DNA of 64,000 nucleotides from Acidobacterium sp. (GTDB lineage Bacteria > Acidobacteriota > Vicinamibacteria > Vicinamibacterales > UBA2999): the NCBI GenBank assembly GCA_002737365.1, contig NSIL01000004.1, forward strand, positions 128,019 to 192,018. The letters are read 5' to 3'. Each line of letters opens with the position of its first letter. Positions within the stretch are counted from its first letter, which is position 1. The translations under genes were made by a program, and so were the position numbers. The notes beneath the pieces are model-generated. The model searched no databases and was not told where the DNA came from. It worked only from the letters and a program-made list of their open reading frames with translations. Of this stretch, positions 42,746-62,782 are shown in pieces.

Positions 42746-42764
42746 GGGAAAGGCTCCTTCGGAC

Positions 42765-47904: not shown

Positions 47905-47932
47905 TTGGCTTGTCGCCGGTCGACAATATACA
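47905..47932 (+). promoter_or_regulatory. candidate sigma70-like promoter of the 15-gene plus-strand operon
   Basis: TTGGCT (47905-10), 16-nt spacer, TATACA (47927-32), 34 nt upstream of ATG 47966. It overlaps the only AT-rich patch (ACAATATACACTGT, partly palindromic) in the divergent spacer. Confidence 0.3.
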
Positions 47933-47965: not shown

Positions 47966-49513
47966 ATGGCCGGGAAGAAGGTCTCCGAGACGATGGGTTA
48001 CGCCGCATTTCTGGAACGGGTCGGGCAGGTCAACGACCTGATCATTGCCAAGCAGATTCTGGCATGGGACGCGCGCACGATGATGCCGCCCGGGGGCGCC
48101 GCGACACGCGCCAAGCAAGAGGCCACGCTGATGGTGATGGCCCGCGACCTGCTGGTGTCGGACGACACTCGGCGGCTGCTCGACCAGGCCGAGGCCGAGA
48201 CAGCCGGACGTGCGGCCGACAGCGTCGAGCGCGCCAACTGCGCCCAGGCCCGGGAGGCTATCGACTATCACCTGCGGATTCCCGGCGCGCTCGTGGCCAA
48301 ACGTGCCGAACTCGGCGCCATCGGCCATGAGGTGTGGGCGCATGCGCGGGCCGAGAGCAACTTCGCCGCCTTCGTGCCCACGCTCGAAGAAACGGTGGCG
48401 CTCAACCGCGAGATGGCCGAGTACATCGGCTATGCCGCGCATCCCTATGACGCCCTGATGTACCGGTTCGAGCCGGGCGAGACCGTCGCCTCGCTGCAGC
48501 CGCTCTTTGCCACGCTGCGCGCCGCGATGCTGCCGCTCGTCGGCGCGATCGGCCAGCGCCCGGCGCCGCGGCTCGACTTCCTGCAACGCGCCTATCCGCG
48601 CGAGGCGCAGCTGGCCTTCGGCCTCTCGATGGCGAAGAAGATCGGCTACGACCTCCACCGCGGCCGTCTCGATACCACCGTGCACCCCTTCGAGGTGTCG
48701 TTCACGAGGAACGACGTCCGCATCACCACCCGCATCAACGAGCGGTGGATGCCGTCGAGCCTGTTCGGCTCGCTGCACGAGGCCGGACACGCCCTCTACG
48801 AGCAGTACGCCGACCCGGCCTTTGTGCGCACACCGCTCGCCACTGACCTCGTGGGCCTGTACGCCGTGAGCGGGGTGAGCTTCGGCGCGCATGAGAGCCA
48901 GTCGCGGCTCTTCGAGAATCACGTCGGCCGCAGCCGCGAGTTCTGGGACCTGAACTTCCCGGAAGCGCGCGCCGCCTTTCCGGAGCAGCTGGCCGATGTC
49001 GACGTCGAGACGTTCTGGCGCGGCGTGAACCGCGTGGCCCCCGGGCTCATCCGCGTGGAGGCTGACGAGCTGACGTACGACTTCCACATCATGCTGCGTG
49101 TGGAGATCGAAGCCGCCCTCGTCGACGGCAGCCTCAAGGTCACCGACCTGCCCGAGGCCTGGAACGCCAAGATCAAGGAATACCTGGGTCTCGAGGTGCC
49201 GAACGATCGGCTCGGCGTGCTGCAAGACGTGCACTGGTCGTCGGGCCAGATCGGTACCTTCTGCAACTACACCATCGGCAACGTGATGGCCGGCCAGCTC
49301 TTCGAGGCGGCCGTGAAGGACCCGCGCGTCTCTACCGGGCTGTCGACGGCCGACTACACGCCGCTACGCGAGTGGATGACCGAACACGTGCACCAGCACG
49401 GCCGTCGCTACACCCGCAACGAACTGCTTGTGCGGGCCACCGGCCGCACGCTCGATCCCGCGCCCTACATCGCGCACCTGACGAGCAAATACTCGACCAT
49501 CTACGGACTGTGA
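47966..49513 (+). CDS. M32-family carboxypeptidase (Taq-type thermostable carboxypeptidase 1 family)
   Basis: About 515 aa from ATG 47966. All M32 signature blocks are visible: HEAGHALYEQ (HExxH), HESQSRLFEN, IRVEADELTY, GVLQDVHWS. Confidence 0.92.
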   Translation: MAGKKVSETMGYAAFLERVGQVNDLIIAKQILAWDARTMMPPGGAATRAKQEATLMVMARDLLVSDDTRRLLDQAEAETAGRAADSVERANCAQAREAIDYHLRIPGALVAKRAELGAIGHEVWAHARAESNFAAFVPTLEETVALNREMAEYIGYAAHPYDALMYRFEPGETVASLQPLFATLRAAMLPLVGAIGQRPAPRLDFLQRAYPREAQLAFGLSMAKKIGYDLHRGRLDTTVHPFEVSFTRNDVRITTRINERWMPSSLFGSLHEAGHALYEQYADPAFVRTPLATDLVGLYAVSGVSFGAHESQSRLFENHVGRSREFWDLNFPEARAAFPEQLADVDVETFWRGVNRVAPGLIRVEADELTYDFHIMLRVEIEAALVDGSLKVTDLPEAWNAKIKEYLGLEVPNDRLGVLQDVHWSSGQIGTFCNYTIGNVMAGQLFEAAVKDPRVSTGLSTADYTPLREWMTEHVHQHGRRYTRNELLVRATGRTLDPAPYIAHLTSKYSTIYGL

Positions 49514-49518
49514 CCCCA

Positions 49519-50691
49519 ATGCCCACGACTCGTCTCGCGCACCGCGCCGCGCTGAAGGACACGCGCGTCAATATCCGGCTGCAGGAGATCGCCGACAGCC
49601 TGCCGGACGTCATCCGGATGGGCCGCGGCGACCCCGATTTCGACACGCCCGCGCACATCGTGCGCGCCGGGCAGGAGGCGCTGGCCAAGGGCGCCACGCA
49701 CTACACCCACGCGCAAGGCATCCTGCCGCTCCGTCAGGCCATCGCCAAGGACATCCTGGCGCGCGGCGGCGCCAGCTACACGCCCGAGCAGATCGTCGTG
49801 ACGCCCGGCGCGCAGCAGGCGCTGTTCACCGTGGCGCTCGGCCTGCTCGATCTAGGTGACGAGATGCTGGCCGCCTGCCCGGGCTACCACCCCTATCACC
49901 AGGCCGCCGAACTGGCCGGTGGGCGGGTCGTCGACATCCGCACGACGATGGCCACCAACTTCACGCTGACCGCCGAGATGGTCGAGGCGCACCTCACGCC
50001 GAAAACGAAGATCCTCGTCGTCGTCAACCCGAGCAACCCGACGGGCACGGTCACGCCGCCCGGCGAGGTGGCGCGGATCGCCGCCGTGGCCAGGGCGCAC
50101 GACCTGCTCGTCATTTCGGATGAGATCTACGCCCAGCTGACCTACGGCGACGCCCGCATCCAGCCGGTGGCGTCGCTGCCCGGCATGGCCGAGCGCACAA
50201 TCACGATTTCGGGCTTCTCGAAGACCTACGCCATGACCGGCTGGCGGGTCGGTTACTTCGCGGCCCCGGCCGATCTCGTGCCGGCGCTGGCCGCGGTCCA
50301 CAACGGGCTGGCCATCTCGACCGCCGCGGTGAGCCAGCATGCCGCGTTGGCCGCGCTGACCGGCCCGCAAGACTGCGTGGCCGACATGCGCCGCACCTAC
50401 GATGAGCGCCGCGTGGCCCTGTGCGAAGGGCTCCGGTCGATGGGCATCCCCTACGCCGACCCGCAGGGCGCCTTCTTCGTCTACGCCAACGTCTCCGGCG
50501 TGGGCATGGGCGCGACCGCGTTCTGCGAGAAAGTGCTGCGCGAGGGCCGGGTGCTGGTGTTTCCGGGTGTCGTCTACGGCGACTACACCGACGACTTCGT
50601 GCGCCTGTCGCTGACCCAGCCGGTCGACAAGATCCGCGAGGCCTGTGCGCGCATGGCGGCAGTCGTCGCTTCGATACGGGAGAGCGCATGA
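49519..50691 (+). CDS. class I/II PLP-dependent aminotransferase (paralog of 40344..41522)
   Basis: 390 aa from ATG 49519. Blocks GRGDPDFDTP, NPSNPTG, FSKTYAMTGWRVGY. Confidence 0.9.
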   Translation: MPTTRLAHRAALKDTRVNIRLQEIADSLPDVIRMGRGDPDFDTPAHIVRAGQEALAKGATHYTHAQGILPLRQAIAKDILARGGASYTPEQIVVTPGAQQALFTVALGLLDLGDEMLAACPGYHPYHQAAELAGGRVVDIRTTMATNFTLTAEMVEAHLTPKTKILVVVNPSNPTGTVTPPGEVARIAAVARAHDLLVISDEIYAQLTYGDARIQPVASLPGMAERTITISGFSKTYAMTGWRVGYFAAPADLVPALAAVHNGLAISTAAVSQHAALAALTGPQDCVADMRRTYDERRVALCEGLRSMGIPYADPQGAFFVYANVSGVGMGATAFCEKVLREGRVLVFPGVVYGDYTDDFVRLSLTQPVDKIREACARMAAVVASIRESA

Positions 50692-51167
50692 AGTCCGACA
50701 ACCCGAATGTGAAGAGCATCAAGCACATGGCCTTTGCCGTGCGTGATGCCGCCGCGGCCCTGGCCGCGTACGCCCGCTTCCTGCACGTGCCGGCCGACAC
50801 GGAGCTGAAGGTCTACCCGAAGTCGCAGAACCGGGTGGCGCTCTTCAACTTGGGCGGCATCGAGTACCAGCTCTGCGAGTCGATGCAGTCCGACGGCCGG
50901 TTCGCGACGTGGATCAATCAGCGCGGCGCCGAAGGCCTGCATCACATTTGCTACGAGGTGGACGACATCGACGCCGCGCTCGCGCACGCGCAGGCGCAGG
51001 GCGCTTCGCTGCGCATCTGCCAGGCCTGCCAGAAGTACGGCTCGCACCCGCACCCCGAAGGCTGGGTGGCCTTCCTCGACAACGAGGCCGGCGGCATCGA
51101 GATCGAGTTCATGCAGGTCTACACGCCAGAACAGTTGAAGAAGTACCAGGAATTCCAAGGGATTTGA
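50688..51167 (+). CDS. VOC-superfamily protein (glyoxalase/dioxygenase/methylmalonyl-CoA-epimerase-like)
   Basis: 159 aa from ATG 50688 (ATGA overlap). Pattern IKHMAFAVRD...GLHHICYEVDDIDAA...IEIEFMQ is typical of a paired beta-alpha-beta-beta-beta module. Confidence 0.75.
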   Translation: MKSDNPNVKSIKHMAFAVRDAAAALAAYARFLHVPADTELKVYPKSQNRVALFNLGGIEYQLCESMQSDGRFATWINQRGAEGLHHICYEVDDIDAALAHAQAQGASLRICQACQKYGSHPHPEGWVAFLDNEAGGIEIEFMQVYTPEQLKKYQEFQGI

Positions 51168-52162
51168 TGATGCCTGCCGCCAAGACCGTCACTGTCGGTT
51201 CCGCCACTGCCGCGCCGGGCACCGTTGTTCGCGGCGCCATTCCGGTCACGACACTCGCCGGTGGCACGCCGCTCGAGATTCCCGTCGTCGTCATCAGCGG
51301 CGCCCAGGGCGGGCCCTGTTTCTGGGTCGATGGCGCGATTCACGGCGACGAGCCCGAGGGCCCACTGGCGTGCCAGATCGCGATGCGCGAGATCGATCCG
51401 GCGCAGCTCTCAGGTACGGTCGTGCTGGTGCCGGTCATGAACGTGCCGGCGTTCGAGGCCGCGCAGCGCGGCAACCCGCTCGATACCTTCAGCTACGACA
51501 TGAACCGGATCTATCCGGGACGGGCGAACGGCTACCTCACCGAACGGATGGCGGCGGCGCACGCCGCGGCCATGACCGCCACCGCCGATTTCGAGATCTC
51601 GATCCATTCGGGCGGCGCGCATTCGTTCCTCGACAAGGCGATCTTCGTCGACGAATCGCCAGCCTCGGTGGAGCTGGCGACAGCGATGGGGCCCGGCTGG
51701 GGCTGCATCATGTCGTCGTTCAATCCGAAGGGAAGTCCCATGGCCCACATGAAGGACTCGGGCAAGGTGGGAATCACCGTGGAACTGGGCGGGCGGTCGG
51801 CGACCTCGCCAAAGGAATTCGCGCGGGTGGGGCGCGAACTGGCGAATTCGATTCTGAATATCGTGCGGCACTACAAGATGTATCCCGGCGCGGCGGCCTA
51901 CCCCTCACCGCGTTACAAGGGGCAGCAAGAGGCGCTCTTGGCGGCGGCGTCGGGCCTGTTCCTGCCGGCGCCCGGCGTCGGCTTCCTGACGATGATGAAA
52001 AAGGGCGACGCCATCGCCCGCATCACGAACATCTTCGGCGACACGCTGGCCGAGCTCAGTGCGCCCGCCGACGGCATGATCTTCGGTCTGCGTGCCCTGC
52101 CGAACGTGACGACAGGCGAATGGTGCTGCTTCTACTGCAAGGTGGAAGGGACGCGGGACTAG
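51167..52162 (+). CDS. succinylglutamate desuccinylase/aspartoacylase (AstE/AspA, M14-like) family deacylase
   Basis: 331 aa, start overlaps the upstream stop (TGATG). Zinc-site block AIHGDEPEG, plus NRIYPG and ISIHSGG blocks. Confidence 0.8.
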   Translation: MMPAAKTVTVGSATAAPGTVVRGAIPVTTLAGGTPLEIPVVVISGAQGGPCFWVDGAIHGDEPEGPLACQIAMREIDPAQLSGTVVLVPVMNVPAFEAAQRGNPLDTFSYDMNRIYPGRANGYLTERMAAAHAAAMTATADFEISIHSGGAHSFLDKAIFVDESPASVELATAMGPGWGCIMSSFNPKGSPMAHMKDSGKVGITVELGGRSATSPKEFARVGRELANSILNIVRHYKMYPGAAAYPSPRYKGQQEALLAAASGLFLPAPGVGFLTMMKKGDAIARITNIFGDTLAELSAPADGMIFGLRALPNVTTGEWCCFYCKVEGTRD

Positions 52163-52169
52163 GACGGCT

Positions 52170-53093
52170 GTGACCAACAACGCGGCATCGGCGCGCGACT
52201 TCGTAGGCTACGGCGAGACGCCGCCCGATGTCTGCTGGCCGGGCGGCGCGCGCCTGGCCGTGAACATCGTCCTCAATTACGAAGAGGGTTCCGAGTACTC
52301 GATCGGGGATGGTGACGGCTGCTCCGATGCCACACTCACGGAAGTCGCGCAAGCGCGGGTGCCGCAGGGGCTGCGTGACCTGGCGGCCGAGAGCATGTTC
52401 GAGTACGGCAGCCGCGTCGGATTCTGGCGGATCTATCGGCTGTTTCGCGAACGCCGGCTGCCGCTCACGGTGTTCGCGGCGGCGCTGGCGCTCGAGCGCA
52501 ATCCCGCGGCGGCGCGCGCCATCGCGGCCACCGACTGGGATGTCGTGTGCCACGGCTGGCGCTGGATCGAGCAGTACCTGCTCGACGAGGCGACCGAGCG
52601 CGACCACATCGCCCGCGCGCATAACGCCGTCACGCGGCTCATCGGCCGGGCTCCCGAGGGCTGGTATTGCCGCTATGCGCCGTCGCCGCACACCCGCCGA
52701 CTGGTGGTCGAGCACGGCGGCTTTGGCTACGACAGCGACGCCTACAACGACGAACTGCCGTACTGGGTGACGGTGGCCGGCCGCCCGCACCTGGTGGTGC
52801 CGTATTCGCTGGTGACCAACGATGCCAAGCTCGTTGGCGGACCGCTCGTGACCGGCCGCGTGTTCGGTGAGTTCCTCATCGACAGCTTCGAGGAACTGCT
52901 GGCCGAGTCACGGCACCAGCCGCGGATGATGTCGGTGGGTCTGCACGCACGGGTCATCGGCCAGCCGGGACGGATTGGCGGATTGCGGGCCTTTCTCGAC
53001 CACATCGAGGGGCGCCCCGGCGCGTGGCTGTGCCGGCGCGGCGACATCGCTGCCCACTGGCGCACGCAGGTGCCGCCTGGAGCGTCCCGGTGA
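52170..53093 (+). CDS. puuE: PuuE-type allantoinase-like polysaccharide-deacetylase-family hydrolase
   Basis: 307 aa, GTG start. Collinear with my memory of PuuE: NYEEG.E, EYGSRVGFWRI, LPLTVFA, HGWRW, EGWY, FGYDSDAYNDELPYW, PHLVVPYSL.TND, MSVGLHARV.GQPGR. Confidence 0.7.
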   Translation: MTNNAASARDFVGYGETPPDVCWPGGARLAVNIVLNYEEGSEYSIGDGDGCSDATLTEVAQARVPQGLRDLAAESMFEYGSRVGFWRIYRLFRERRLPLTVFAAALALERNPAAARAIAATDWDVVCHGWRWIEQYLLDEATERDHIARAHNAVTRLIGRAPEGWYCRYAPSPHTRRLVVEHGGFGYDSDAYNDELPYWVTVAGRPHLVVPYSLVTNDAKLVGGPLVTGRVFGEFLIDSFEELLAESRHQPRMMSVGLHARVIGQPGRIGGLRAFLDHIEGRPGAWLCRRGDIAAHWRTQVPPGASR

Positions 53094-53590
53094 GGCTGCC
53101 GCTGCTGGCCCCGGACGTGGCGCTGTTCGCCCCCTTCGGCGAGTTCATCGACGTGCCCGCGCAGGTCGGCCTTCGGCGGATGTACAGCCAATGGCTGGCG
53201 CCCGTGGCGGGTCTGGCGCTGCAGTTCCACACCAACCGGGTCGCGGCCTCCACCCTGCCCTTGCGTGTCGATCGGGTCGAGCGCCATCCCCACGCCGCGC
53301 AGCTATTCCTGCCGCTCGTGGCCTCGCAGTACGTCGTGACCGTGATGGCGGCCGACGCGGCCGGGGCGCCCGATCCGGCCTCGGCGCACGCGTTCCTGCT
53401 GCCGCCCACCATCGGGGTCGTCTACCGGACCGGTGTCTGGCATGCCGGCATGACGGCACTCGATACGGAAGGGAGTTTTGCCGTGATGATGTGGCGCGGC
53501 GCCGCGGACGATGACGTCTTCGCCGCCATTCCGTCGGTAGTCGTCGACGCACCGGCAGCCGTTGCCTCGTCAGGAGGCAGGTATGGCTAG
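53090..53590 (+). CDS. allA: ureidoglycolate lyase (AllA) family protein
   Basis: About 166 aa from GTG 53090 (GTGA overlap). Family pattern ...F.PFGEFI......ERHP.A.Q.F.PL......V.V......P....AF....G..Y..GVWH......F.V.... Confidence 0.6.
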   Translation: MRLPLLAPDVALFAPFGEFIDVPAQVGLRRMYSQWLAPVAGLALQFHTNRVAASTLPLRVDRVERHPHAAQLFLPLVASQYVVTVMAADAAGAPDPASAHAFLLPPTIGVVYRTGVWHAGMTALDTEGSFAVMMWRGAADDDVFAAIPSVVVDAPAAVASSGGRYG

Positions 53591-54263
53591 CCATCCGTTC
53601 GCCACCACGCTCGCGCCGATCGAGCAGACGCCGCTCAAGGTGCAGATCGCCGACCAGTTGCGGCGTGCCATCGTGACCGGGCGGCTGCGCCCGGGCGCGG
53701 CGCTCGTCGAAACCGCGCTCGCCGAGCAGCTCAACGTCAGCCGGGCGCCGATTCGCGAAGCGGTGCAGATTCTCGAGAACGATGGCCTAGTCGAAACCGT
53801 GGCCTACAAGGGCAAGCGCGTCAAGCCGCTCACGGTGCGCGAGGTCGTCGAAACCTGCGAGATGCGCACGGTGTTCGAGGTCACGGCCGCGCGGCGTCTG
53901 CTCGCGCACGGCACGGCGGTCGACACGTTGTGGCAGCCCTGCCGCGTGATGGAGGAGGCCGCCGCCGCCGGCGACCGCGAGGCGCTGGTCGTGGCCGACG
54001 AGGCGTTCCACCGGCGGCTCATCGAGCTCTCCGGTCATGCGCTCCTGACCCAATTCTGGGCCGGCCTCTATCTGCGGATCCATCAGATCATGTCGCTGCG
54101 CAACGACCGCGACGTAAACCTAGTCGACATCGCCGCCAACCATCCGCCGATCGTCCGCGCGCTCGCCGCGGGGGACGGCGCACTGGCGGAACAGCTGATC
54201 GCCGCACATACCCACGCGCTGGCCAGTTTCGATCCGGCCAGCGTCGCGGAGTCCCTGACATGA
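53583..54263 (+). CDS. GntR-family transcriptional regulator (FadR/FCD subfamily)
   Basis: About 226 aa from ATG 53583. Winged-HTH block QIADQLRRAIVTGRLRPGAALVETALAEQLNVSRAPIREAVQILENDGLV, followed by an all-helical FCD-like C-terminal domain. Confidence 0.88.
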   Translation: MASHPFATTLAPIEQTPLKVQIADQLRRAIVTGRLRPGAALVETALAEQLNVSRAPIREAVQILENDGLVETVAYKGKRVKPLTVREVVETCEMRTVFEVTAARRLLAHGTAVDTLWQPCRVMEEAAAAGDREALVVADEAFHRRLIELSGHALLTQFWAGLYLRIHQIMSLRNDRDVNLVDIAANHPPIVRALAAGDGALAEQLIAAHTHALASFDPASVAESLT

Positions 54264-55177
54264 GGGAGCCACAGACCGTGCTCATCACCGGCGCCGGCGG
54301 GTTTGTCGGCAGCGCCCTGGCCGAGGGCTTCGCGGCGCTCGGCTGGCGTGTGATGGCCGTCGACCGGGCGTTCGACGAGGCGACCGGCCAGCGCCTGGCT
54401 GGCTGCGATTTGGTCACGGCAGAGCTCGGCGATATCGTGCCGGGCGACCTGCCGACCGCGGCGCTGGTGATTCACGCCGCGGCCATCACGACCCCAGCCG
54501 CCGATCTCGGCTGGACGCCGGCGGCCCATGTGGCGGCCAACACCAGGCCGCTCGTCTCGATGCTCGAATACGCGGCTCGCACGCGTCCGGCGGCCTTCGT
54601 GTTCGTGAGTTCGAGCGGCGTCTTTGCCGCAGGCGATGGCCACACCGAGCTGACCGACGCCGACCTGCCGACCGGCCATTCACCCTATGCCTCCGCCAAG
54701 CGCGCTGGGGAATTGCTGACGGTGGCGGCACTTGAAGGCCTGGCGGCGGCGCACGTGATTCGCTTGGGCTACCTGTATGGGCCGCACGAGACCGCGCGGC
54801 CGAGCCGGTCACGCACCTCGGCCGTGGCCCGCTGGCTGGCGGCAGCACGCGACGGGCAGCCGCTCGTAGTGCCATCCGATGACCCGCTTCGCGACTGGAC
54901 TTTCACCCCCGACCTGGCGCCGGTACTGGCGCGGCTGGCTGCGCTGCCGCCCGCCGGGCGGCCGGTGCATCTCTGCAGCCCCCACATGCTGAGGGACAGC
55001 GCCATGGCCGGCGGCATTGCCGCGCTTGTCCCAGGCGCCAAGTGCGTGACGGAGCCGGCCGCCGTGCCGGCGAAGCCGCCGATGCGCGCGTCGGATTTGT
55101 CGCGCCTGGGCGCCGTACGGTGGACCGCCCCAGACGCGGCGCTGGCGCGCCTGGTCGGCACGGAGGTCACGGCATGA
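54260..55177 (+). CDS. NAD-dependent epimerase/dehydratase-family (extended SDR) protein
   Basis: 305 aa from ATG 54260 (ATGA overlap). Rossmann motif ITGAGGFVGSAL and catalytic YASAK. Confidence 0.82.
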   Translation: MREPQTVLITGAGGFVGSALAEGFAALGWRVMAVDRAFDEATGQRLAGCDLVTAELGDIVPGDLPTAALVIHAAAITTPAADLGWTPAAHVAANTRPLVSMLEYAARTRPAAFVFVSSSGVFAAGDGHTELTDADLPTGHSPYASAKRAGELLTVAALEGLAAAHVIRLGYLYGPHETARPSRSRTSAVARWLAAARDGQPLVVPSDDPLRDWTFTPDLAPVLARLAALPPAGRPVHLCSPHMLRDSAMAGGIAALVPGAKCVTEPAAVPAKPPMRASDLSRLGAVRWTAPDAALARLVGTEVTA

Positions 55178-56211
55178 GCGTCGTGCGCGTCATCCTCGTC
55201 GGGCTGGGCGCCCGGGCCCGCATCTGGCGGCGCGTTGTGGCGGCGCGTCCCGACTGCCGGATCGTCGGTCTCGTCGACCAACGCGTAGACGCTGTGATGG
55301 CCGCGGTGGCCGAGACGGCCGGCGCCGTCGGCGGCGCGACGCTCGCCGAGGTCACGGCGCGCGTGGCGGCCGACGCCGTCATCCTCAGCACGCCGCCCGG
55401 CGGCCGTGACGACCAGATCGCCGCGGCATGCGCCGCCGGGCTCGCGATCCTGGCGGAGAAGCCGCTGGCCGACAGCGTCGAGGCCGCCGAGGCGCATGTG
55501 GCGACGGCCGCGCGCGCCGGCGTGTCGCTCGCCGTCGGGCTGAACTTCCGTTACCTGGCCGTGACCCGGGCACTCAAGGCCCTGCTCACGCCCGAGCAGA
55601 TGGGCCGTCCCGAGTTTGCGCACTTCACCTACGAACGCTGGCGCGATGGACGGCTGCCGCATCTGAATAAGTACCCGCTCACGATGGATCACCCGATGCT
55701 CTGGGAGCAGTCGATCCATCATTTCGATCTGATGCGTTTTGTCTACGATGCCGAGCCGACCACGATTTCGGCCCGCACGTTCAACCCGTCGTGGTCAATG
55801 TATCGCGGCGACGCCAACGTCTCAGCGCTCATCATCTTCACGGGCGGGCTCGAAGTGACGTATCAAGGTACGTGGGCGGGTAACTGGCAGCCCATGACGT
55901 TCAACTGGCGCACCGAAACGCCCCACGGCGTCGTCATCCAGGCCGACATGTTCGGCGCGCTCGGCTATGCGCGCCGTGATGACGCGGCCCTGACGCCAGT
56001 CACCCTGCCCGCCGTCGAACCGTGGGTGGACGACGCGGCGGCGCTCTTCGACGACTTCGCTGCCCACGTCCGTGACGGGGCGCCGCTGCCGTGCCCCGGC
56101 ACCGACCACGTGCGTTCCCTGCGCATGGTGGCGGCCTGCATCGAGTCATCGATGACCGGCCGCGCCGTCGATCCCCGTGTCCCAGGACTGCAAAGGACGA
56201 GCCCCTCATGA
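55174..56211 (+). CDS. Gfo/Idh/MocA-family oxidoreductase
   Basis: 345 aa from ATG 55174 (ATGA overlap). N-terminal Rossmann VRVILVGLGARA and the EKP motif (LAEKPLA). Confidence 0.82.
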   Translation: MSVVRVILVGLGARARIWRRVVAARPDCRIVGLVDQRVDAVMAAVAETAGAVGGATLAEVTARVAADAVILSTPPGGRDDQIAAACAAGLAILAEKPLADSVEAAEAHVATAARAGVSLAVGLNFRYLAVTRALKALLTPEQMGRPEFAHFTYERWRDGRLPHLNKYPLTMDHPMLWEQSIHHFDLMRFVYDAEPTTISARTFNPSWSMYRGDANVSALIIFTGGLEVTYQGTWAGNWQPMTFNWRTETPHGVVIQADMFGALGYARRDDAALTPVTLPAVEPWVDDAAALFDDFAAHVRDGAPLPCPGTDHVRSLRMVAACIESSMTGRAVDPRVPGLQRTSPS

Positions 56212-57773
56212 AACTGCGCTACCTCGCGGCCCTCGCCGCCGGCCTTGCCATTGTCGGTGCGGCGGTGATGATGATTCGGACCGGACCGCGTGCCGCCAGC
56301 ACGATCGTCGTCGGCCTGAGCGCCGACGTCGCCACCTTCGAGCCGGCCAACATCTCAAGCCGCGACAACATGAACATCGCGCACCACATCTTCGCGTCGC
56401 TGTTCACGCTGGATATGGACGGCCAGCATCGGCCCAATCTGGCGCGCGAGCTGGCCATCTCCGAGGACGGGCTGGCCTATACCTACACCTTGCGTGAGGG
56501 CCTGACCTGCCACGACGGTGAGGCGCTCACGGCCGAAGACGTCGCCTACACCTTCGCCCGCATCGCCAATCCGGCCAACAAGTTCACCGGCAACGCGCCT
56601 GGTTTCGTCTTCAGCTCGATTGGCTTCCGCAGCGCCGAGGCGCTCGACCCACAGCGCGTGCGCATCACGATCGCCCAGAAGCACCCCATCGCCTTCGGCC
56701 TGCTGACCGAGATCAGCATCCACTGCAAGGACAGCTACGAGAGGATGAGCCCCGACCAGGCGGCGACGTCGCCGATTGGCTCCGGTCCGTATCGGCTGGC
56801 GTCCTGGTCGCGTGGGGCCGAGGTCGTCCTCGAGAAAGCGGGGGAATCCGCGGTCGCTTTCGACCGTATCGTCTGGCGGATCATTCCCGAGGCCTCCACC
56901 CGCGCCGCCGAGCTGATGGCCGGCAACGTCGATATCATCGCCAACGTGGCGCCGGATCAGGTCGCCGCCATCAACCAGTCGGGCGTCGCGGCCGTGCAGT
57001 CGGTGACGAGTACCCGCCGCATGTTCATCGGCTTCAACCAGGCCGAGCAGTTTGGCAAGACGCCCGGCGGGCGGGCGATTCGCGATCCGCGGGTGCGACG
57101 CGCCCTGCAGTACGCGGTCGACGTCCCGACGATCTGCCGGCAGTTGCTGCAGGTCGAGTGTCAACGAGCCACCGGCCTCGTCAACGCGGTCAACGCCAAC
57201 AAGGCCCTGTCGCCCTATCCCTTCGAGCCGGCCACGGCCGAGCGGCTGCTCGATGAGGCCGGCTGGCCCCGCGTCGACGGGAAGATGCGCTTCGCGCTGA
57301 CGCTGCAGGCCGGCCGCGGCCGGTACCTGAACGATGTCAACGTCGTGCAGGCCATCGGCCAGTACCTGCGTGATGCCGGTGTCGACGTGACGGTCGAATT
57401 GCTGGACTGGGCCAGCGTCTTTCAGCCGCTCCTGCGCACGCGCACCGCCGGGCCGCTCTTCTTCATGGGCACCGGCGGCGGTCTGTGGAGCCCCATCTAC
57501 GACATGAACGATCTGGCGCGCGTGGACTCCGGCACCAACTACCCGAACTGGTCCGACCCACGCTGGTTCTCGCGCTGGGATGCCCTCACCGATGCCGCCA
57601 CGCCCGACGACACCCGCCGCATCGTCGACGAGATGCTGCAGGTCTTCTACGACGACGGCCCGTGGCTGCACTTGTACTTCCAGCCCGACTTCTACGGCGT
57701 GTCTTCACGCGTCGAATGGAAGGCCCGGCCCGATGAGCGGATCTACGCGTTCGACGCGAGGCCCAAGGGCTGA
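56208..57773 (+). CDS. ABC transporter substrate-binding protein, family 5 (peptide/opine/nickel type)
   Basis: 521 aa from ATG 56208 (ATGA overlap). Signal/anchor sequence present. Typical SBP_bac_5 blocks (LA.....DG..YTF.LR.G...HDG..LTAEDV.YTF). Confidence 0.88.
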   Translation: MKLRYLAALAAGLAIVGAAVMMIRTGPRAASTIVVGLSADVATFEPANISSRDNMNIAHHIFASLFTLDMDGQHRPNLARELAISEDGLAYTYTLREGLTCHDGEALTAEDVAYTFARIANPANKFTGNAPGFVFSSIGFRSAEALDPQRVRITIAQKHPIAFGLLTEISIHCKDSYERMSPDQAATSPIGSGPYRLASWSRGAEVVLEKAGESAVAFDRIVWRIIPEASTRAAELMAGNVDIIANVAPDQVAAINQSGVAAVQSVTSTRRMFIGFNQAEQFGKTPGGRAIRDPRVRRALQYAVDVPTICRQLLQVECQRATGLVNAVNANKALSPYPFEPATAERLLDEAGWPRVDGKMRFALTLQAGRGRYLNDVNVVQAIGQYLRDAGVDVTVELLDWASVFQPLLRTRTAGPLFFMGTGGGLWSPIYDMNDLARVDSGTNYPNWSDPRWFSRWDALTDAATPDDTRRIVDEMLQVFYDDGPWLHLYFQPDFYGVSSRVEWKARPDERIYAFDARPKG

Positions 57774-58762
57774 TGGGCATCCTGGTCGCGCGCCGGTTGC
57801 TGCAGAGCGTCGTCGTCATCCTTGGCGTCACGCTCATCAGCTTCATCGCCCTCCATGCCGGGGGCGATCCGACCTACCTGTTCGTCAGCGAGCGGGCGAC
57901 CACCGAGGAGATCGCGCTTGTTCGCCAGGCGCTCGGATTCGATCGGCCGCTGCATGTGCAGTACCTGAGCTTCGTGGCCGACCTAGCCCGCGGCGACTTC
58001 GGCACCTCGCTCTCGTACCGCCAGCCGGCGCTCGACATCGTGCTTGCCGCCTTTCCGGCGACGATCGAGCTGGCGGTGTTCGCCTTCGCGATCGCCATCG
58101 TCGTGGCCATTCCGCTCGGCGTCGTCGCCGCCCTCAACCGCGGTACGGCCGTGGACGGCTCGATTACGATGCTCGGGCTGCTGGGGCAGTCGATTCCGAA
58201 TTTCTGGATGGGGATCATGCTGATCCTCTTCTTCGGGCTCAACCTGCGCTGGTTTCCGATCTCCGGCCACGTGCCGTTCCTCGTGCCACTGCTGAACGGC
58301 GACCTCGCCACGGCACTGGGCAACCTGCCGCGCACCCTCTATTTCCTCGTCATGCCGGGCGTGGCGGTGGCCACCTATTCGCTGGCCCGCAATACCCGGC
58401 TCGTGCGCTCGTCGATGCTCGAGGTGCTGGGACAGGACTACGTGCGCACGGCGCGCGCCAAGGGCCTGTCCGAGCAGGTCGTAGTGGTGCACCACGCGCT
58501 GCGCAACGCCTGGCTTCCGGTGGTGACGATGATCGGCCTCGAGTTCGGCTTCCTGCTGGGCGGCGTCGTCGTGACCGAGACCGTCTTCAGCTACCCGGGC
58601 ATCGGGCGGCTGCTGTTCAATGCGATCAACCAGCGCGACATTCCGGTCGTGCAGGCCGGCGTCATCCTACTGGCCGGCAACTTCATTCTGCTGAACACGG
58701 CAGTCGATCTCGTGTACGCCCGGCTCGATCCGCGCGTGTCGCTGACCCGGGGGCGGCGATGA
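57773..58762 (+). CDS. ABC transporter permease (DppB/OppB-like)
   Basis: 329 aa, TGATG overlap with the SBP gene. N-terminus ILVARRLLQSVVVILGVTLISF and the EAA-loop region YVRTARAKGLSE. Confidence 0.9.
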   Translation: MGILVARRLLQSVVVILGVTLISFIALHAGGDPTYLFVSERATTEEIALVRQALGFDRPLHVQYLSFVADLARGDFGTSLSYRQPALDIVLAAFPATIELAVFAFAIAIVVAIPLGVVAALNRGTAVDGSITMLGLLGQSIPNFWMGIMLILFFGLNLRWFPISGHVPFLVPLLNGDLATALGNLPRTLYFLVMPGVAVATYSLARNTRLVRSSMLEVLGQDYVRTARAKGLSEQVVVVHHALRNAWLPVVTMIGLEFGFLLGGVVVTETVFSYPGIGRLLFNAINQRDIPVVQAGVILLAGNFILLNTAVDLVYARLDPRVSLTRGRR

Positions 58763-59634
58763 GCCTGCGGCCAGACCCACGGCGGGCGTGGCGCAGCATG
58801 GTGAGGGCGAGATGGCCGCTGCTGGCGGTGGCCATTCTGGCCGTCGTGGTTGTGGTGGCGGCCTTCGGCCCTTGGCTGGCGCCGCTCGATCCGGAGCGTC
58901 AGAGCATCGTGTCGCGACTGTCGCCGCCGGGCACGACGGGCCCGCAGGGGATCACGCACTGGCTCGGGTCCGACGTGCTCGGCCGCGACGTGTTGTCGCG
59001 CCTGCTCTACGGCGCGCGCATCTCGTTGCTGGTCGGGCTGGCGGCGATTATGGTCGGCGGGACACTGGGGACGTTGGCGGGTCTCGTCTCCGGCTACTTC
59101 GGCGGCTGGATCGACGACCTGACGATGCGGCTCTGCGACATGCAGTTGGCGTTTCCGTTCGTGCTCCTGGCGATCATGTTCCTGGTGGTGCTGGGCCCGG
59201 GGGTCGGCAACCTCGTGCTAGTCCTCGGCATCGGCCAGTGGGTCACCTACGCCCGGATCGTCCGCGCCGAGACGCTGTCGCTGCGCGAGAAGGAGTTCGT
59301 CGAAGCGGCCCGCGCGCTGGGCGACCGCACCGCGACCATTCTGTTCCGCACGATTCTGCCGAACACCATCGCCCCGCTGACCGTCATTGCCTCGTTCAAC
59401 GTGGCGAGCGTGATACTCACCGAGGCGGCGTTGTCGTTTCTCGGCCTGGGCGTGCCGGCGTCGGTGCCGACCTGGGGCAGCATGCTGGCCGAGAGCCGCG
59501 ATACGCTGCTGGCGAACAAGTGGTGGCTCGCCGTGTTTCCTGGCGTCGCGATCATGCTGACCGTGCTCAGTTTCAACATCATCGGGGATTGGCTGCGGGA
59601 CGCCCTGGATCCGCGGCTGCGGGAGCGACAGTGA
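58759..59634 (+). CDS. ABC transporter permease (DppC/OppC-like)
   Basis: 291 aa from ATG 58759 (ATGA overlap). Blocks HWLGSDVLGRDVLSRLLYGARISL and EFVEAARALG (EAA loop). Confidence 0.9.
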   Translation: MSLRPDPRRAWRSMVRARWPLLAVAILAVVVVVAAFGPWLAPLDPERQSIVSRLSPPGTTGPQGITHWLGSDVLGRDVLSRLLYGARISLLVGLAAIMVGGTLGTLAGLVSGYFGGWIDDLTMRLCDMQLAFPFVLLAIMFLVVLGPGVGNLVLVLGIGQWVTYARIVRAETLSLREKEFVEAARALGDRTATILFRTILPNTIAPLTVIASFNVASVILTEAALSFLGLGVPASVPTWGSMLAESRDTLLANKWWLAVFPGVAIMLTVLSFNIIGDWLRDALDPRLRERQ

Positions 59635-59644
59635 GACAGCGAGA

Positions 59645-60727
59645 ATGAGAGTCGGGATCATCGGGGCCAGCTTTGCGCAGGCGGCGTATTTGCCGGCGCT
59701 GCGACACGTGCCTGGCGCAGACGTGGTCGCGGTGGCGTCGGCACGCCTGGCGAGCGCACAGAAGGCCGCGTCGGCTTTCGGCGTGCCGCATGCCTACGAC
59801 GACTGGCAGCGGATGCTCGCCGCGCACACCTTCGACCTGGTGTGCATCGCGACACCGACCGTGCAGCACGCGCTGCAGACCCTGGCCGCGATCGCCGCCG
59901 GCGCGCACGTGCTCTGTGAGAAGCCGACGGCGATGCACGCCGGCGAGGCGGCGCGCATGCTCGCCGCCGCTGAAGCCGCCGGCCGCGTGCACATGATTGA
60001 CCACGAGCTGCGCTTCAATCCCAATCGCGCGCGGATTCAGGCGCTCATCGCCGACGGCAGCCTCGGCGAGGTTCGGCATGTCATCATCAGCAACATCGGT
60101 CCGTCGTGGAACGACCCGGCCAGCCGGCCGAAGGGCGACTGGTGGAGCCAGGCGGAGCAGGGCGGCGGCCGCCTCGGCGCCAATGGCAGCCATCAGGTCG
60201 ACCTGCTGCGCTGGTGGCTGGGCGAGGCGGCCTGGGTGACTGGAGCCGCTCCGGTGATGGTGCCGGCGCGCCTCGACAAGGTTACCGGTGCGCCGTGGAC
60301 GGCGACGGCCGACGACGTCGCGTATTTCACCGCCGAGATGGCGAGCGGCGCCGTGGCCCAGGTATTCATGTCGGGCGTGGCCGCGCACAACATGAACAAC
60401 GTCACGCAGGTATTCGGCTCGAAGGGCACCGTGAAGCTCTCGACCGACGACGAGCGCCTCTGGTTCGCCAGGGCCGGGCAGGGGTTCGAGGACATCACCG
60501 AGACCGATCCGAACGCGTCGCTGCCGGGTGTGGGTCCGGGCATCTGGAACGTGTCTGTGGTCGGCGTGATGCAGGAATTGGCCGCGGCGATTCGTGAGCA
60601 GCGACGGCCGTTACGCGGCGCGACCTTCGTCGACGGCCTGGCCAATCAGCGCCTGCTCGACGCCGTGCGCGTGTCGGGCACCGAGCGCCGATGGGTGCGA
60701 CCGGAGGACATCGATGCCGGCGCTTGA
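59645..60727 (+). CDS. Gfo/Idh/MocA-family oxidoreductase (second copy)
   Basis: 360 aa. N-terminal MRVGIIGASFAQ and the EKP motif (LCEKPTA). Confidence 0.85.
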   Translation: MRVGIIGASFAQAAYLPALRHVPGADVVAVASARLASAQKAASAFGVPHAYDDWQRMLAAHTFDLVCIATPTVQHALQTLAAIAAGAHVLCEKPTAMHAGEAARMLAAAEAAGRVHMIDHELRFNPNRARIQALIADGSLGEVRHVIISNIGPSWNDPASRPKGDWWSQAEQGGGRLGANGSHQVDLLRWWLGEAAWVTGAAPVMVPARLDKVTGAPWTATADDVAYFTAEMASGAVAQVFMSGVAAHNMNNVTQVFGSKGTVKLSTDDERLWFARAGQGFEDITETDPNASLPGVGPGIWNVSVVGVMQELAAAIREQRRPLRGATFVDGLANQRLLDAVRVSGTERRWVRPEDIDAGA

Positions 60728-61421
60728 GGGCCAGACGGTGCTCGTGACCGGCGCGGCCCAGGGACTGGGCGCCGCCATCGCCCGCCATCTGCATGCCGGA
60801 GGCGCCCGGCTCATCCTGATGGACCGCGATGCCACGGGCCTCGCGGGCATCGCCGCCGAGTGCCGTGGCGCCGTGTCCGCCGTGGTGGACCTGGCCGACG
60901 CAGCCGATACCGCTCGGGCGATTGCCACCGCGGTCCGCGGGCCCGTCGACACGCTCATCCACAACGCGGCCATCCTCAAGATGGAGCCGGTCGACGTGGT
61001 GAGCCTCGCTACGTTCCAGGCTACGCTCAACGTCGGCATTCAGGCGGGGTTCCAGCTCACGCAGGCGGTGTGGCCGACGATGAAAGCCCGCGGCGGCGCC
61101 CTGGTCTTCGTGAGCTCGCGGTCGGGCATCGAAGGGTTCGCCGACGAGACGGCGTATTGTGCGTCGAAGCACGCGCTCGAAGGCTTCTCGAAGAGCCTGG
61201 CCCTCGAGGGCGCCGGGCACGGCATTCTCTCGGTCACGGTCACGCCGGGGATGTACATGCACACGCCGATGTCGGAAACCACCTACTCAGCGGAGTTGCG
61301 CGCGCAGTGGGTCGATCCGATCCGGCTCGCCCCGGCCTTCGCGTATCTCGCCACGCGTCCGCTCCACCTGTCCGGGCAGCGCCTGAACGCCTGGGACCTT
61401 TCGCAGGAACGCTCATCATGA
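60714..61421 (+). CDS. short-chain dehydrogenase/reductase (classical SDR)
   Basis: 235 aa from ATG 60714 (14-nt overlap with the upstream gene). Motifs TGAAQGLGAAIA (TGxxxGxG), NAA, and YCASKHAL (YxxxK). Confidence 0.88.
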   Translation: MPALEGQTVLVTGAAQGLGAAIARHLHAGGARLILMDRDATGLAGIAAECRGAVSAVVDLADAADTARAIATAVRGPVDTLIHNAAILKMEPVDVVSLATFQATLNVGIQAGFQLTQAVWPTMKARGGALVFVSSRSGIEGFADETAYCASKHALEGFSKSLALEGAGHGILSVTVTPGMYMHTPMSETTYSAELRAQWVDPIRLAPAFAYLATRPLHLSGQRLNAWDLSQERSS

Positions 61422-62782
61422 GCATGAAGCCCGTTTACGACTGGATCGACCAGCACGCCGACGAATGCATCGGCGATCTGCAGCGATTCGTGCAGCAGCC
61501 GTCGATTTCGGCCCAGAACATCGGCCTGCGCGAGTGCGCCTCGCTCGTGCGCGACATGATGCACGCCGACGGCCTGCCGGCCGACTTCCACGAGCTGGCG
61601 GCCGGCCCGCCCGTGGTGTTCGGGCATCTGCAGGCGAAACAGCCGGGCAAGAAGACCATCCTCTGCTACTCGCACTACGACGTGCAGCCGCCCGAACCGC
61701 TCGACAAGTGGACGCACGGCGGGCCCTGGTCGGCGGCGATTGTCGACGGCGTGCTCTACGGGCGCGGCGCCACCGACAACAAGTCAGGGGTGCTGGCGTT
61801 CCAGAAGGCGGCCAAGGCGTTTCTCCAGGTGCGCGGCGAGGTGCCATGCAATCTCAAGTTCCTGGTAGAAGGCGAGGAGGAAATCGGGTCTCCGCACCTG
61901 GCTGCCTGGGCCGCCCAGAATGCCCCACTGCTGGCGGCCGACGGGATGCACTGCCTCGACGGGTCGATGGAGACCGGCACCCAGGTACCGGACGTATCGC
62001 TCGGGCTCAAATCGGTGCTCTTCGTCGAGCTCACGGCGCGCGGTGCGAATAGCGACATCCACTCGCTGAACTTCCCGCTGGTGCCGGCGCCGGTGTGGGA
62101 ACTCATCTGGGCGCTGAACACGATCTTCAGCCGCGACCGCCGCATTCTGATCGAGGGCTGGGACGAAGGCATCTGGCAGCTTGGGCCCGACGACGAACAG
62201 CAGCTGGCCGACAAGGCGGGTCGCGTCAACCTGCAGGCGATGAAGGACGAGTGGGGCATTACCGAGTTCGCCGGCGGCCGCGACGGCATCGATGCCCTGC
62301 GGGCACGCTCCTACGAGCCCACGGCCAACATCCAGGGGTTGATTGCCGGCTACACCGGACCCGGCACGAAGACGATCGTGCCGAACGAAGCGCGGGCACG
62401 CCTCGACTTCCGGCTGATTCCGAACATCCAGCCGGCGGCCGCGATCCGCAAGCTGAAGGCGCACCTCGAGAAACACGGGTTCGGGCACATCGAGGTGAAA
62501 GCGTACGACAACGCCGAGCCGCCCTACAAAATCTCAGTCAAAGAAGACATCAGCCAGGCCATCATCGCCGCGGCGACCGAGGTTTACGGCGAGCTGCCGG
62601 TCGTCAACGGTGTGTCGGCCGAGGGCGCGATTCTGCGCCACGTGTGGATTCCGTGCGTGCTGACCGGTTTCGCCAACCCAGGCGCCAACCTGCACGCGCC
62701 CGATGAAAACATCCACCTCGACAAATACCTGCTCGGCATCAAGTATGCGGCGGCGATCATGGAGCACTTCAGCCGGACCTGA
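61418..62782 (+). CDS. M20-family metallopeptidase/deacylase (cytoplasmic paralog of 7..1701)
   Basis: 454 aa from ATG 61418 (ATGA overlap). Blocks FVQQPSISAQNIG, YSHYDVQP, RGATDNKSG, VEGEEEIGS. No signal peptide. Confidence 0.88.
   Translation: MSMKPVYDWIDQHADECIGDLQRFVQQPSISAQNIGLRECASLVRDMMHADGLPADFHELAAGPPVVFGHLQAKQPGKKTILCYSHYDVQPPEPLDKWTHGGPWSAAIVDGVLYGRGATDNKSGVLAFQKAAKAFLQVRGEVPCNLKFLVEGEEEIGSPHLAAWAAQNAPLLAADGMHCLDGSMETGTQVPDVSLGLKSVLFVELTARGANSDIHSLNFPLVPAPVWELIWALNTIFSRDRRILIEGWDEGIWQLGPDDEQQLADKAGRVNLQAMKDEWGITEFAGGRDGIDALRARSYEPTANIQGLIAGYTGPGTKTIVPNEARARLDFRLIPNIQPAAAIRKLKAHLEKHGFGHIEVKAYDNAEPPYKISVKEDISQAIIAAATEVYGELPVVNGVSAEGAILRHVWIPCVLTGFANPGANLHAPDENIHLDKYLLGIKYAAAIMEHFSRT

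Follow-up and report, generated by a model that had tools for sequence, protein, structure and literature searches.

The 64,000-nucleotide stretch of Acidobacterium sp. DNA analysed here (contig NSIL01000004.1, positions 128,019 to 192,018; hereafter the window) carries 25 genes at 35796–62782, arranged in two divergently transcribed arms (Table 1). The plus-strand arm comprises 15 open reading frames (ORFs) at 47966–62782, none with internal stops and each with an in-frame G+C content at third codon positions (GC3) of 0.85–0.92. The minus-strand arm (35796–47874) starts 91 nt upstream of it and adds ten genes. An initial annotation of this DNA had described the plus arm as a 15-gene operon. 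Its genes, in the order given there, are borne out by the ORF map, GC3 and independent gene calls, and Pfam agrees with every gene family that it named, including the GntR and FCD domains of the embedded regulator; the operon is, however, but one arm of a 25-gene divergent regulon. We interpret the ~27-kb block, with what we judge to be an even chance of being right, as a horizontally spread catabolic regulon for one imported glyco-/ureido-peptide-like substrate.

Both arms are equally tightly packed. In the plus arm 11 of the 14 junctions overlap, exactly as the initial annotation had claimed: seven by 4 nt (50688, 53090, 54260, 55174, 56208, 58759 and 61418), two by 1 nt (51167 and 57773), one by 8 nt (53583) and one by 14 nt (60714), and the remaining gaps measure 5, 7 and 10 nt. 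Six junctions of the minus arm are 4-nt overlaps; for m09, an in-frame ATG at 37904, read from the translation, gives the overlap with m08. The plus-arm boundaries were reproduced by independent gene calls on identical contigs, with alternative starts for three genes (the M32 peptidase at 47993, the AstE-type protein at 51170 and permease C at 58798), and the overlaps partly depend on which start codon is chosen. Overlaps of the NTGA type come cheap in a genome of 68% G+C; beyond chance is the conservation, with one gene order in ~28 loci of four phyla. The 8-nt overlap between the AllA-like and GntR genes also occurs in loci L005 and L006 of other genomes, and the 14-nt overlap between the second Gfo gene and the SDR gene in L005, L006 and L007. 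Elsewhere among the other genomes, gaps between plus-arm genes reach 80–143 nt, with genes inserted at module borders. A Shine-Dalgarno-like AGGAGG precedes g07; promoter-like and terminator-like sites within the plus operon did not exceed shuffled expectation, and no terminator hairpin above chance follows g15. Together with the shared strand and the small gaps, the lack of such internal sites speaks indirectly for one transcript of the plus arm. The stoichiometric products that had been deduced from this geometry are not demonstrated by overlaps and translational coupling alone. Catalytic motifs are intact in the enzymes concerned: all five M32 signatures in g01, HxxE in the AstE-type g04, GxxGxxG and YxxxK in g08, YxxxK in g14 and the EKP motif in both Gfo proteins (g09 and g13).

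Table 1. Genes and other features of the divergent locus (positions in the window).
Name	Product or feature	Position	Strand	Match or remark
g01	M32 (Taq-type) carboxypeptidase	47966–49513	+	PF02074, 553 bits
g02	Class I/II aminotransferase 1	49519–50691	+	PF00155, 228 bits
g03	VOC/glyoxalase-fold protein, methylmalonyl-CoA-epimerase-like	50688–51167	+	Glyoxalase_4
g04	AstE/AspA-family zinc deacylase	51167–52162	+	PF24827
g05	PuuE-type metal-independent cyclic amidohydrolase, allantoinase-like (predicted)	52170–53093	+	Pfam Polysacc_deac_1; 3cl6, 301 bits
g06	Diverged AllA-like cupin (ureidoglycolate-lyase family)	53090–53590	+	PF04115 (Ureidogly_lyase), 76 bits
g07	GntR/FCD transcriptional regulator	53583–54263	+	PF00392, 61 bits (N-terminal winged helix-turn-helix); PF07729, 75 bits (C-terminal FCD)
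g08	Extended short-chain dehydrogenase/reductase (SDR), NAD-dependent epimerase/dehydratase family	54260–55177	+	PF01370
g09	Gfo/Idh/MocA oxidoreductase 1	55174–56211	+	PF01408, PF22725, PF02894
g10	Family-5 solute-binding protein with N-terminal hydrophobic segment	56208–57773	+	PF00496 (SBP_bac_5), 232 bits
g11	DppB/OppB-type permease	57773–58762	+	BPD_transp_1 and N-terminal domain
g12	DppC/OppC-type permease	58759–59634	+	BPD_transp_1 and OppC_N
g13	Gfo/Idh/MocA oxidoreductase 2	59645–60727	+	Pfam
g14	Classical SDR	60714–61421	+	adh_short, 144 bits
g15	M20 dipeptidase/deacylase	61418–62782	+	Peptidase_M20
operator	Putative GntR operator	47910–47927		TTGTCGCCGGTCGACAAT, within the 91-nt divergent promoter region
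m01	DUF4438 protein a, first gene of the divergent arm	47005–47874	-	PF14505 and PF20999
m02	DUF4438 protein b	46121–47008	-	PF14505 and PF20999; 40% identical to m01
insertion	Lineage-specific 1.1-kb insertion between Ldh_2 and DUF4438b, apparently a decayed vapBC-like pair	45023–46120	+	
m03	Ldh_2 NAD(P) 2-hydroxy/2-oxo-acid or cyclic-imine oxidoreductase	43943–45022	-	PF02615, 340 bits
m04	M24 creatinase/prolidase-type metallohydrolase	42765–43946	-	Creatinase_N and Peptidase_M24
m05	Amidohydrolase-superfamily dipeptidase-like enzyme	41519–42745	-	Amidohydro_1
m06	Class I/II aminotransferase 2	40344–41522	-	PF00155, 221 bits; 45% identical to g02
m07	474-aa glycoside-hydrolase-like (beta/alpha)8 barrel, cytoplasmic (predicted)	38923–40347	-	Fold only
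m08	OppD/DppD-type ABC ATPase	37901–38926	-	ABC_tran and oligo_HPY; OppD subfamily, 361 bits
m09	OppF/DppF-type ABC ATPase	36936–37904	-	ABC_tran and oligo_HPY; NF008453, 380 bits
m10	DUF819 membrane protein, last gene of the divergent arm	35796–36932	-	PF05684, 184 bits

The two arms together encode a complete Opp/Dpp-type set of transporter parts, consisting of a SBP_bac_5 protein, two BPD_transp_1 permeases and two ATPases with ABC_tran and oligo_HPY domains. The importer had been called ATPase-less in the initial annotation, which is accurate within the plus operon; the OppD/OppF pair lies at 36936–38926 on the opposite strand, ~18 kb from the genes of the binding protein and permeases. 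Since no other Opp-type solute-binding protein or permease was found within the 64-kb window, g10–g12 most likely use m08 and m09 and form one importer with them. Both further sources that were checked, the genome of Rhizobium sp. RU36D and a contig of Longimicrobiales, show an identical split, with the ATPase genes at the end of the other arm; m08 follows m07 in loci L088 and L089 too. The E. coli importers DppABCDF and GsiABCD have the same parts (a family-5 binding protein, B and C permeases and two oligo_HPY ATPases), but in our case the genes are divided between two divergent operons and the binding protein is only distantly related. Protein g10 is distant from all solved solute-binding proteins, with YliB/GsiB as best PDB match at 113 bits and AgaA and AccA also among the matches. 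A transporter split that is conserved in this way is not ordinary. The membership of m10, which follows the ATPase genes, is uncertain: a 68%-identical homologue flanks a reduced cluster in L026, and L088 and L089 have no DUF819 gene after the ATPases.

A single putative operator lies in the promoter region shared by both arms. Its GTCGACAA core occurs in every one of the 27 orthologous intergenic regions between divergent arms. Most of the non-acidobacterial ones have the complete palindrome ATTGTCGACAAT, often with a GCTTGACA -35-like box 35–45 nt upstream of it. The copy in the window departs from the 12-mer palindrome at 3 positions. A search for further copies with up to 2 mismatches returned two unrelated matches in the window, a number not above chance, and missed the window's own copy. 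The conserved inverted repeat fits the T.GT...AC.A type of GntR/FadR (FCD) operators. The site would have the form expected for this family and is placed where one repressor could serve both arms; most likely, g07 binds it and controls both.

The gene-neighbourhood check that the initial annotation had proposed for other Acidobacteria turned out strongly positive, and well beyond that phylum. Homologues of g05 number thousands; 80 genome loci around g05 relatives were retrieved and searched with all 25 cluster proteins. The same 20–25 genes, with the order and orientation of both arms retained, were found in ~28 loci from Acidobacteriota (L008, L009, L022, L043), Gemmatimonadota/Longimicrobiales (L005, L012, L017, L019, L021, L023, L033), Alphaproteobacteria (the Rhodobacterales L010, L018, L020, L032 and others, and the Devosia/Rhizobium/Pelagibacterium loci L024–L031, L034, L035) and Verrucomicrobiota (L016, from a Limisphaerales metagenome-assembled genome). 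Among the 80 loci, g05 homologues of at least 65% identity always lie inside the cluster and those of 64% or less lie in other contexts, bar a few reduced variants. In L037, for instance, the homologue and a full-length allA accompany an ABC system of the sugar/nucleoside type. The reduced variants (L042, L045, L047, L051, L026) keep the genes for aminotransferase, VOC, AstE-type, PuuE and AllA proteins, to which some add a trio of amidohydrolase, second aminotransferase and m07 as well as a Gfo gene.

Individual proteins are 65–90% identical across phyla, and the m07 homologues 67–90%. Over the cluster loci g08 is the least conserved gene (42–87% identity), while g03 is among the best conserved (72–97%) and m05 ranges from 66 to 97%. 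The verrucomicrobial locus L016 shares 74–77% of its nucleotides with Rhodobacterales loci, about as many as two Rhodobacterales loci share with each other (74–76%), and the G+C content of the window is ~0.67–0.72 across 32–62 kb (the cluster with its left flank) compared to ~0.61–0.67 elsewhere, or roughly 0.68–0.70 against 0.64. Together, the cross-phylum identities, the nucleotide similarity of L016 and the raised G+C content indicate that the cluster has spread horizontally among freshwater and soil bacteria. Plasmids were considered as the vehicle of transfer and rejected, as PLSDB holds no close m07 homologue.

Two adjacent genes of the plus arm, g05 and g06, may act on a hydantoin or ureide unit. 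PuuE is said to have been described as an allantoinase by Ramazzina and co-workers in 2008. Protein g05 matches PuuE of P. fluorescens (3cl6) over residues 8–302 and keeps both the Glu-His-Trp triad E38/H128/W132, which replaces the metal site of CE4 enzymes, and H259. A comparison of 28 PuuE homologues of the cluster clade with 45 from outside the cluster yielded only 2 clade-specific positions, against ~75 residues that are invariant in both clades, E38, H128, W132 and H259 among them. Because the triad and H259 are kept and no more than these 2 positions are clade-specific, the active site is indistinguishable from that of allantoinase PuuE. What had been a vague ureide-type hydrolase in the initial annotation is thus more precisely predicted to be a metal-independent cyclic amidohydrolase with an allantoinase-like active site. 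Two other assignments were ruled out, a CE4 sugar or peptidoglycan de-N-acetylase by the metal-free triad and a paralogue with a reshaped active site by the 2 clade-specific positions.

Directly downstream, g06 matches PF04115 clearly (cutoff 23 bits) but partially, over profile positions 57–145 of 162, and scores below cutoff on all NCBIfam AllA models. Outside the cluster an allA homologue directly adjoins puuE in 13 loci; in L037 it is full length (PF04115 109 bits, profile positions 1–158). Since this adjacency is common, g05–g06 looks like a recruited and diverged copy of the puuE-allA pair. With the pair of purine and ureide metabolism it has in common the triad, His259, the ~75 invariant residues and the position of g06 after g05. 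It differs in that g05 belongs to a separate clade of at least 65% identity that is confined to the cluster and stays below the TIGR03212 cutoff (360.5 vs 424.6 bits), in that g06 matches the AllA profile in its centre only and in its location among peptidases and sugar-type oxidoreductases. It also differs in lacking companions: uricase, HIU hydrolase and OHCU decarboxylase, which would lead from urate to allantoin, as well as allantoicase and AllC have no Pfam or NCBIfam match among the 25 products. AllD was ruled out as an identity of m03, which scores 120 vs 496 bits on TIGR03175; in the PDB, 1v9n (216 bits) and sulfolactate dehydrogenase (174 bits) are nearer to it than AllD (104 bits). 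By analogy with ectoine degradation, the ureide branch may be completed by the AstE-type g04, an aminotransferase and the VOC protein, in a sequence of ring opening, deacylation and transamination.

The sugar side of the proposed substrate would be handled in part by m07. This protein has no sequence match in Pfam, NCBIfam or the PDB, profile search included. Its AlphaFold2 model is a (beta/alpha)8 barrel (pLDDT 83, pTM 0.86), for which the top Foldseek matches are Cwp19 (GHL10, E 2.7e-10), PgaB of GH153, GH42 and GH164, and a minority of its orthologues give a weak match to PF02638 (GHL10). The residues N195-E196-R197 at a strand end are invariant among the m07 homologues; E196-R197, unlike N195, are invariant even in relatives of 31% identity. 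A clear nucleophile Glu could not be assigned. As m07 has no signal peptide, it would act in the cytoplasm; its distant relatives carry Tat signals. Compared to its best fold matches Cwp19, DigH and PgaB, with which it is also connected through the weak PF02638 matches of some orthologues, m07 is undetectable by Pfam, signal-less and only 13% identical at TM ~0.5. Both characterised GHL10 proteins act on the glycan of peptidoglycan, Cwp19 (PMC6016235) and DigH (PMC12288456).

The distant, periplasmic relatives of m07 have varied neighbours. On the Granulicella tundricola plasmid pACIX901 (L090, 384196–403578), a Tat-signal relative of 31% identity is flanked by genes for a peptidyl-prolyl isomerase and an aminopeptidase P, downstream of an M1 peptidase gene and a complete hydroxyproline operon (a proline racemase family protein, a three-subunit D-hydroxyproline dehydrogenase, a dihydrodipicolinate synthase (DHDPS) family protein and an aldehyde dehydrogenase). 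In a polysaccharide utilisation locus of Parabacteroides a relative stands beside GH43 and prolyl oligopeptidase genes. The metagenome loci L092–L171 feature DUF5695 (~930 aa) in 9 loci, TonB-dependent receptors in 7, GH127 beta-L-arabinofuranosidases in 6 and FG-GAP/ASPIC proteins in 4, and no single conserved partner. Hydroxyproline genes do not accompany the periplasmic m07 relatives systematically: 2 of the 39 large metagenome loci have them, the neighbours are heterogeneous, and the link is kept as a weak hint.

The remaining enzymes resemble known families at some distance. No cluster protein meets an NCBIfam equivalog cutoff, the orthologues go by 'allantoinase', 'polysaccharide deacetylase family protein', 'hypothetical protein' or 'DUF4438 domain-containing protein' in the source records, and no paper describing the cluster was found in the literature, which agrees with the earlier statement that no characterised pathway accounts for it. 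The aminotransferases g02 and m06 are below all NCBIfam cutoffs, including those of the LL-diaminopimelate (LL-DAP) aminotransferase models on which both score. Protein g03 reaches 66 vs 115 bits on TIGR03081. Among characterised proteins, g04 comes nearest to DoeB (102 vs 403 bits; DoeB in the PDB, 6twl, 80 bits). The M24 protein m04 is PepQ-like at 113 bits and scores 38–43 vs 575–613 bits on DoeA, all below cutoff, and the best NCBIfam match of m05 is the Caulobacter-type Xaa-Pro dipeptidase (191 vs 500 bits), so that both m04 and m05 resemble Xaa-Pro dipeptidases. For g15 the score is 318 vs 369 bits on the PRK06446 subfamily, and its 25 best NCBIfam matches include no allantoate amidohydrolase model. 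Of the solved structures with a named function, those closest to g13 are two sugar 3-dehydrogenases, levoglucosan dehydrogenase (6a3f) and DgpA; higher scores go to two oxidoreductases without a name. The AlphaFold2 model of DUF4438 is poor (pLDDT 63.5) and its Foldseek match is TM1086 alone (3n99/3dcl, function uncharacterised); no functional paper on DUF4438 or TM1086 was found in the literature.

Three known systems share part of this logic. Ectoine degradation by DoeA-DoeB-DoeD-DoeC likewise proceeds from a ring-opening hydrolase to an AstE-family deacylase and an aminotransferase, m04 has the M24/creatinase fold of DoeA, and DoeB is the nearest relative of g04. However, the scores are far under the equivalog cutoffs, the ring-opener beside g04 is of the PuuE type rather than M24, the aminotransferases are of class I rather than class III, and there is no aldehyde dehydrogenase. 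The oxidoreductive cleavage of glycosides (LgdA, DgpA, Bacteroides BT_2158/2159) similarly combines two Gfo-family enzymes with further reductases in one cluster, but our locus has no xylose-isomerase-like TIM-barrel lyase, the score is 106 vs 650 bits and the context is one of peptide import. The opine and Amadori operons of Agrobacterium (aga/moa, acc, moc, soc) share a family-5 importer, a local regulator, oxidoreductases and amide/lactam hydrolases, which there serve a sugar-amino-acid conjugate. They differ in their low identities, which do not amount to orthology, in the FAD opine oxidase or amadoriase that is missing here and in their hosts: the cluster is not on PLSDB plasmids and occurs mostly in freshwater and soil taxa other than Agrobacterium. 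Overall, a locally encoded GntR repressor together with an ABC importer and catabolic enzymes of the cytoplasm makes an ordinary architecture, whereas the combination of enzymes and the conservation of ~20–25 genes as a block across four phyla are out of the ordinary.

Further hydrolase genes lie beside the cluster, and one insertion interrupts it. Orthologous loci lack this insertion in the minus arm; in L005 and L006, Ldh_2 directly adjoins DUF4438b. The insertion carries a small antitoxin-like plus-strand ORF (45390/45447–45638) and, downstream of it and overlapping it by ATGA, a PIN/VapC-like frame; the latter gives a weak PIN match (20.7 bits) and is broken by a stop at 45666 and frame changes, with a plus-strand ORF at 45668–45949. 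This looks like a decayed vapBC pair that lies antisense within the minus-strand operon and outside the pathway. To the left of the cluster, at 31908–35401, genes for a 416-aa Amidohydro_1 protein, a 217-aa fragment limited to the C-terminal two thirds of the Amidohydro_1 profile and an Amidase of 288 aa covering profile positions 47–278 of 445 may be truncated or frameshifted. On the right, a minus-strand gene for an M1-family aminopeptidase with an ERAP1_C domain (62832–64000) converges on the operon end and runs past the window edge; M1 peptidase genes likewise neighbour the distant m07 relatives in Granulicella and three metagenome loci. At 7–1701 and 22867–24144 the window also contains distant paralogues of cluster enzymes, an M20 protein 30% identical to g15 and an amidohydrolase 31% identical to m05.

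Read as one pathway, the regulon could work as follows. The family-5 binding protein and two permeases of the plus arm would import a peptide-like solute with the OppD/OppF ATPases of the minus arm. In the cytoplasm, m07 and the four NAD(P) oxidoreductases (two Gfo/Idh/MocA proteins, the extended SDR and the classical SDR) would remove or oxidise a glycosyl or polyol part. Five metallohydrolases (M32, M20, M24, the prolidase-like amidohydrolase and the AstE-type enzyme) would then strip amino acids and N-acyl groups, possibly including tertiary-amide bonds of the Xaa-Pro type. The PuuE-type allantoinase and the AllA-like lyase would open and split a hydantoin or ureide unit, and the two class-I aminotransferases, Ldh_2 and the VOC protein would turn the freed amino acids into oxo and hydroxy acids. 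The embedded GntR/FCD repressor would control both arms from the single palindromic operator in the 91-nt shared promoter. The transporter parts and the catalytic residues of the ureide enzymes are read from the sequence; the pairing of importer and ATPases and the identity of the ureide are presumed.

The pathway is probably new. It is plausible, with a little less than even confidence, that it is an undescribed route for an abundant environmental glyco-/ureido-peptide, with m07 as a new cytoplasmic glycoside hydrolase family, a first function for the DUF4438 pair, PuuE and AllA recruited to a new substrate and transfer of the whole block between phyla. Under the same proviso, the substrate could be a hydroxyproline O-glycopeptide of algal or plant walls, or a modified peptide with a cyclic ureide or hemiaminal ring. 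The glyco-conjugate suggested in the initial annotation gains some support from the glycosidase-like m07. The available hints point weakly to hydroxyproline glycopeptides and muropeptides. Cyanopeptides (anabaenopeptins, aeruginosins, cyanopeptolins), t6A/ct6A nucleosides, flavins/F420, mycosporines, pyoverdines and nonulosonic-acid glycopeptides are candidates on chemical grounds alone, with no support in our data.

Several observations weigh against a single pathway. We know of no abundant natural compound that joins sugar, peptide and hydantoin. The glycosidase assignment of m07 is one of predicted fold alone, at the TM value given above, and the ureide branch is incomplete by known rules, as m03 is not AllD-like and allantoicase and AllC are missing. 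In addition, parts of the cluster are dispensable or variable. The AstE-type gene g04 is lost in four Gemmatimonadota-type loci (L006, L019, L021, L033), and DUF4438 and M24 are lost in L017. A DHDPS/DapA-family gene is added between the AllA-like g06 and the GntR gene g07 in 12 loci (L020 at 11415–12317, L011, L014, L016, L018, L027–L030, L032, L034, L035), which belong to Rhodobacterales, Devosia, Pelagibacterium and Verrucomicrobiota; it is absent from Acidobacteriota and Gemmatimonadota. The divergent arm of Rhizobium sp. RU36D (L088) gains an AllB/hydantoinase/dihydroorotase-like amidohydrolase (11425–12831; below cutoff on the AllB model, at 286 bits) and an M14 peptidase of 557 aa (14944–16617), and L006 gains PF00144 (DD-peptidase-family) genes. 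These lineage-specific gains and losses make the module borders visible, and non-obligatory modules fit a modular island as well as a single pathway.

Such an island, in which independent small pathways for oligopeptide uptake and exopeptidase action, allantoin and sugars or polyols are assembled under one regulator for nitrogen scavenging, is in our estimation unlikely; nevertheless, the variation of the cluster's modules between genomes, where they are gained and lost independently, makes it a serious rival. It would also agree with g05, which is indistinguishable from a true allantoinase at conserved positions, and with the reduced variants L042 and L047, which consist of the five-gene aminotransferase-to-AllA set with a transporter of its own. 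On the other hand, unrelated functions would not usually keep ~20 genes in order and orientation over four phyla with overlapping junctions. A single transporter divided between both arms and a single operator in the shared promoter also speak for one unit, and an allantoin module would lack the allantoicase or AllC needed to complete it.

If the regulon served the catabolism of hydroxyproline- or proline-rich O-glycopeptides from plant or algal walls (of the extensin or arabinogalactan-protein type), the importer would take up glycopeptides, m07 and the oxidoreductases would remove and oxidise arabinose or galactose, and m04, m05, M32 and M20 would cut Xaa-Pro/Hyp bonds. The two Xaa-Pro-dipeptidase-like enzymes, the m07 relative at the Granulicella hydroxyproline operon and similar arrangements in L092 and L109, the GH127 or GH43 and prolyl oligopeptidase genes beside other relatives and the DHDPS-family gene of 12 cluster loci are all consistent with this. 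We nonetheless regard it as improbable: these are minority associations (hydroxyproline genes in 2 of 39 large metagenome loci, GH127 in 6 of 63), Pfam finds no proline-racemase-type epimerase, D-hydroxyproline dehydrogenase or aldehyde dehydrogenase among the cluster products, and the always-present core from aminotransferase to AllA would be left unexplained.

Import of murein peptides by MppA/Opp-type systems is established, and the cluster could likewise serve muropeptides. A GHL10-like m07 would split the disaccharide, deacylases and exopeptidases would strip the stem peptide, and aminotransferases and oxidoreductases would dispose of D-Glu/DAP and the lactyl-sugar. The fold suggests this substrate, since Cwp19 is the best match of m07 and both characterised GHL10 proteins cleave murein glycan; the LL-DAP aminotransferase scores of g02 and m06, though below cutoff, and the extra PF00144 genes of L006 and M14 peptidase of Rhizobium point in the same direction. 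Yet no AmpD/AmiD amidase, NagZ, AnmK, MurQ, LdcA or NagA family was detected by Pfam among the cluster products, the metal-free triad of g05 is not that of a CE4 sugar de-N-acetylase, and the PF02638 match is weak in orthologues and absent for the m07 of the window, which makes muropeptides a highly improbable answer. Least of all do we expect a characterised pathway in disguise (canonical allantoin utilisation, ectoine degradation of the Doe/Eut type or Agrobacterium-type opine/Amadori catabolism): the PuuE and AllA families are present, g04 and m04 distantly resemble DoeB and DoeA and the binding protein is distantly related to AgaA and AccA, but the equivalog scores given above for DoeB, DoeA and AllD are far below cutoff, no allantoicase/AllC, DoeC/DoeD-type, FAD opine oxidase or amadoriase gene was found, and the literature search returned no paper.

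Should the cluster prove to be a composite scavenging island, there would be nothing unusual about it. Direct tests are within reach, as a candidate operator is defined and the cluster is carried by cultured strains (Devosia sp. Naph2, Pelagibacterium lentulum, Rhizobium sp. RU36D and Pseudorhodobacter sp. MZDSW-24AT). If instead the 25 genes form the single catabolic regulon that we propose, the cluster would illustrate an ABC importer whose genes are divided between two divergent operons and would give functions to the 'dark' families of the DUF4438 pair, the m07 TIM barrel and the PuuE subclade. It would then mark a source of nitrogen and carbon that is used by many freshwater and soil bacteria and has so far not been connected to genes.

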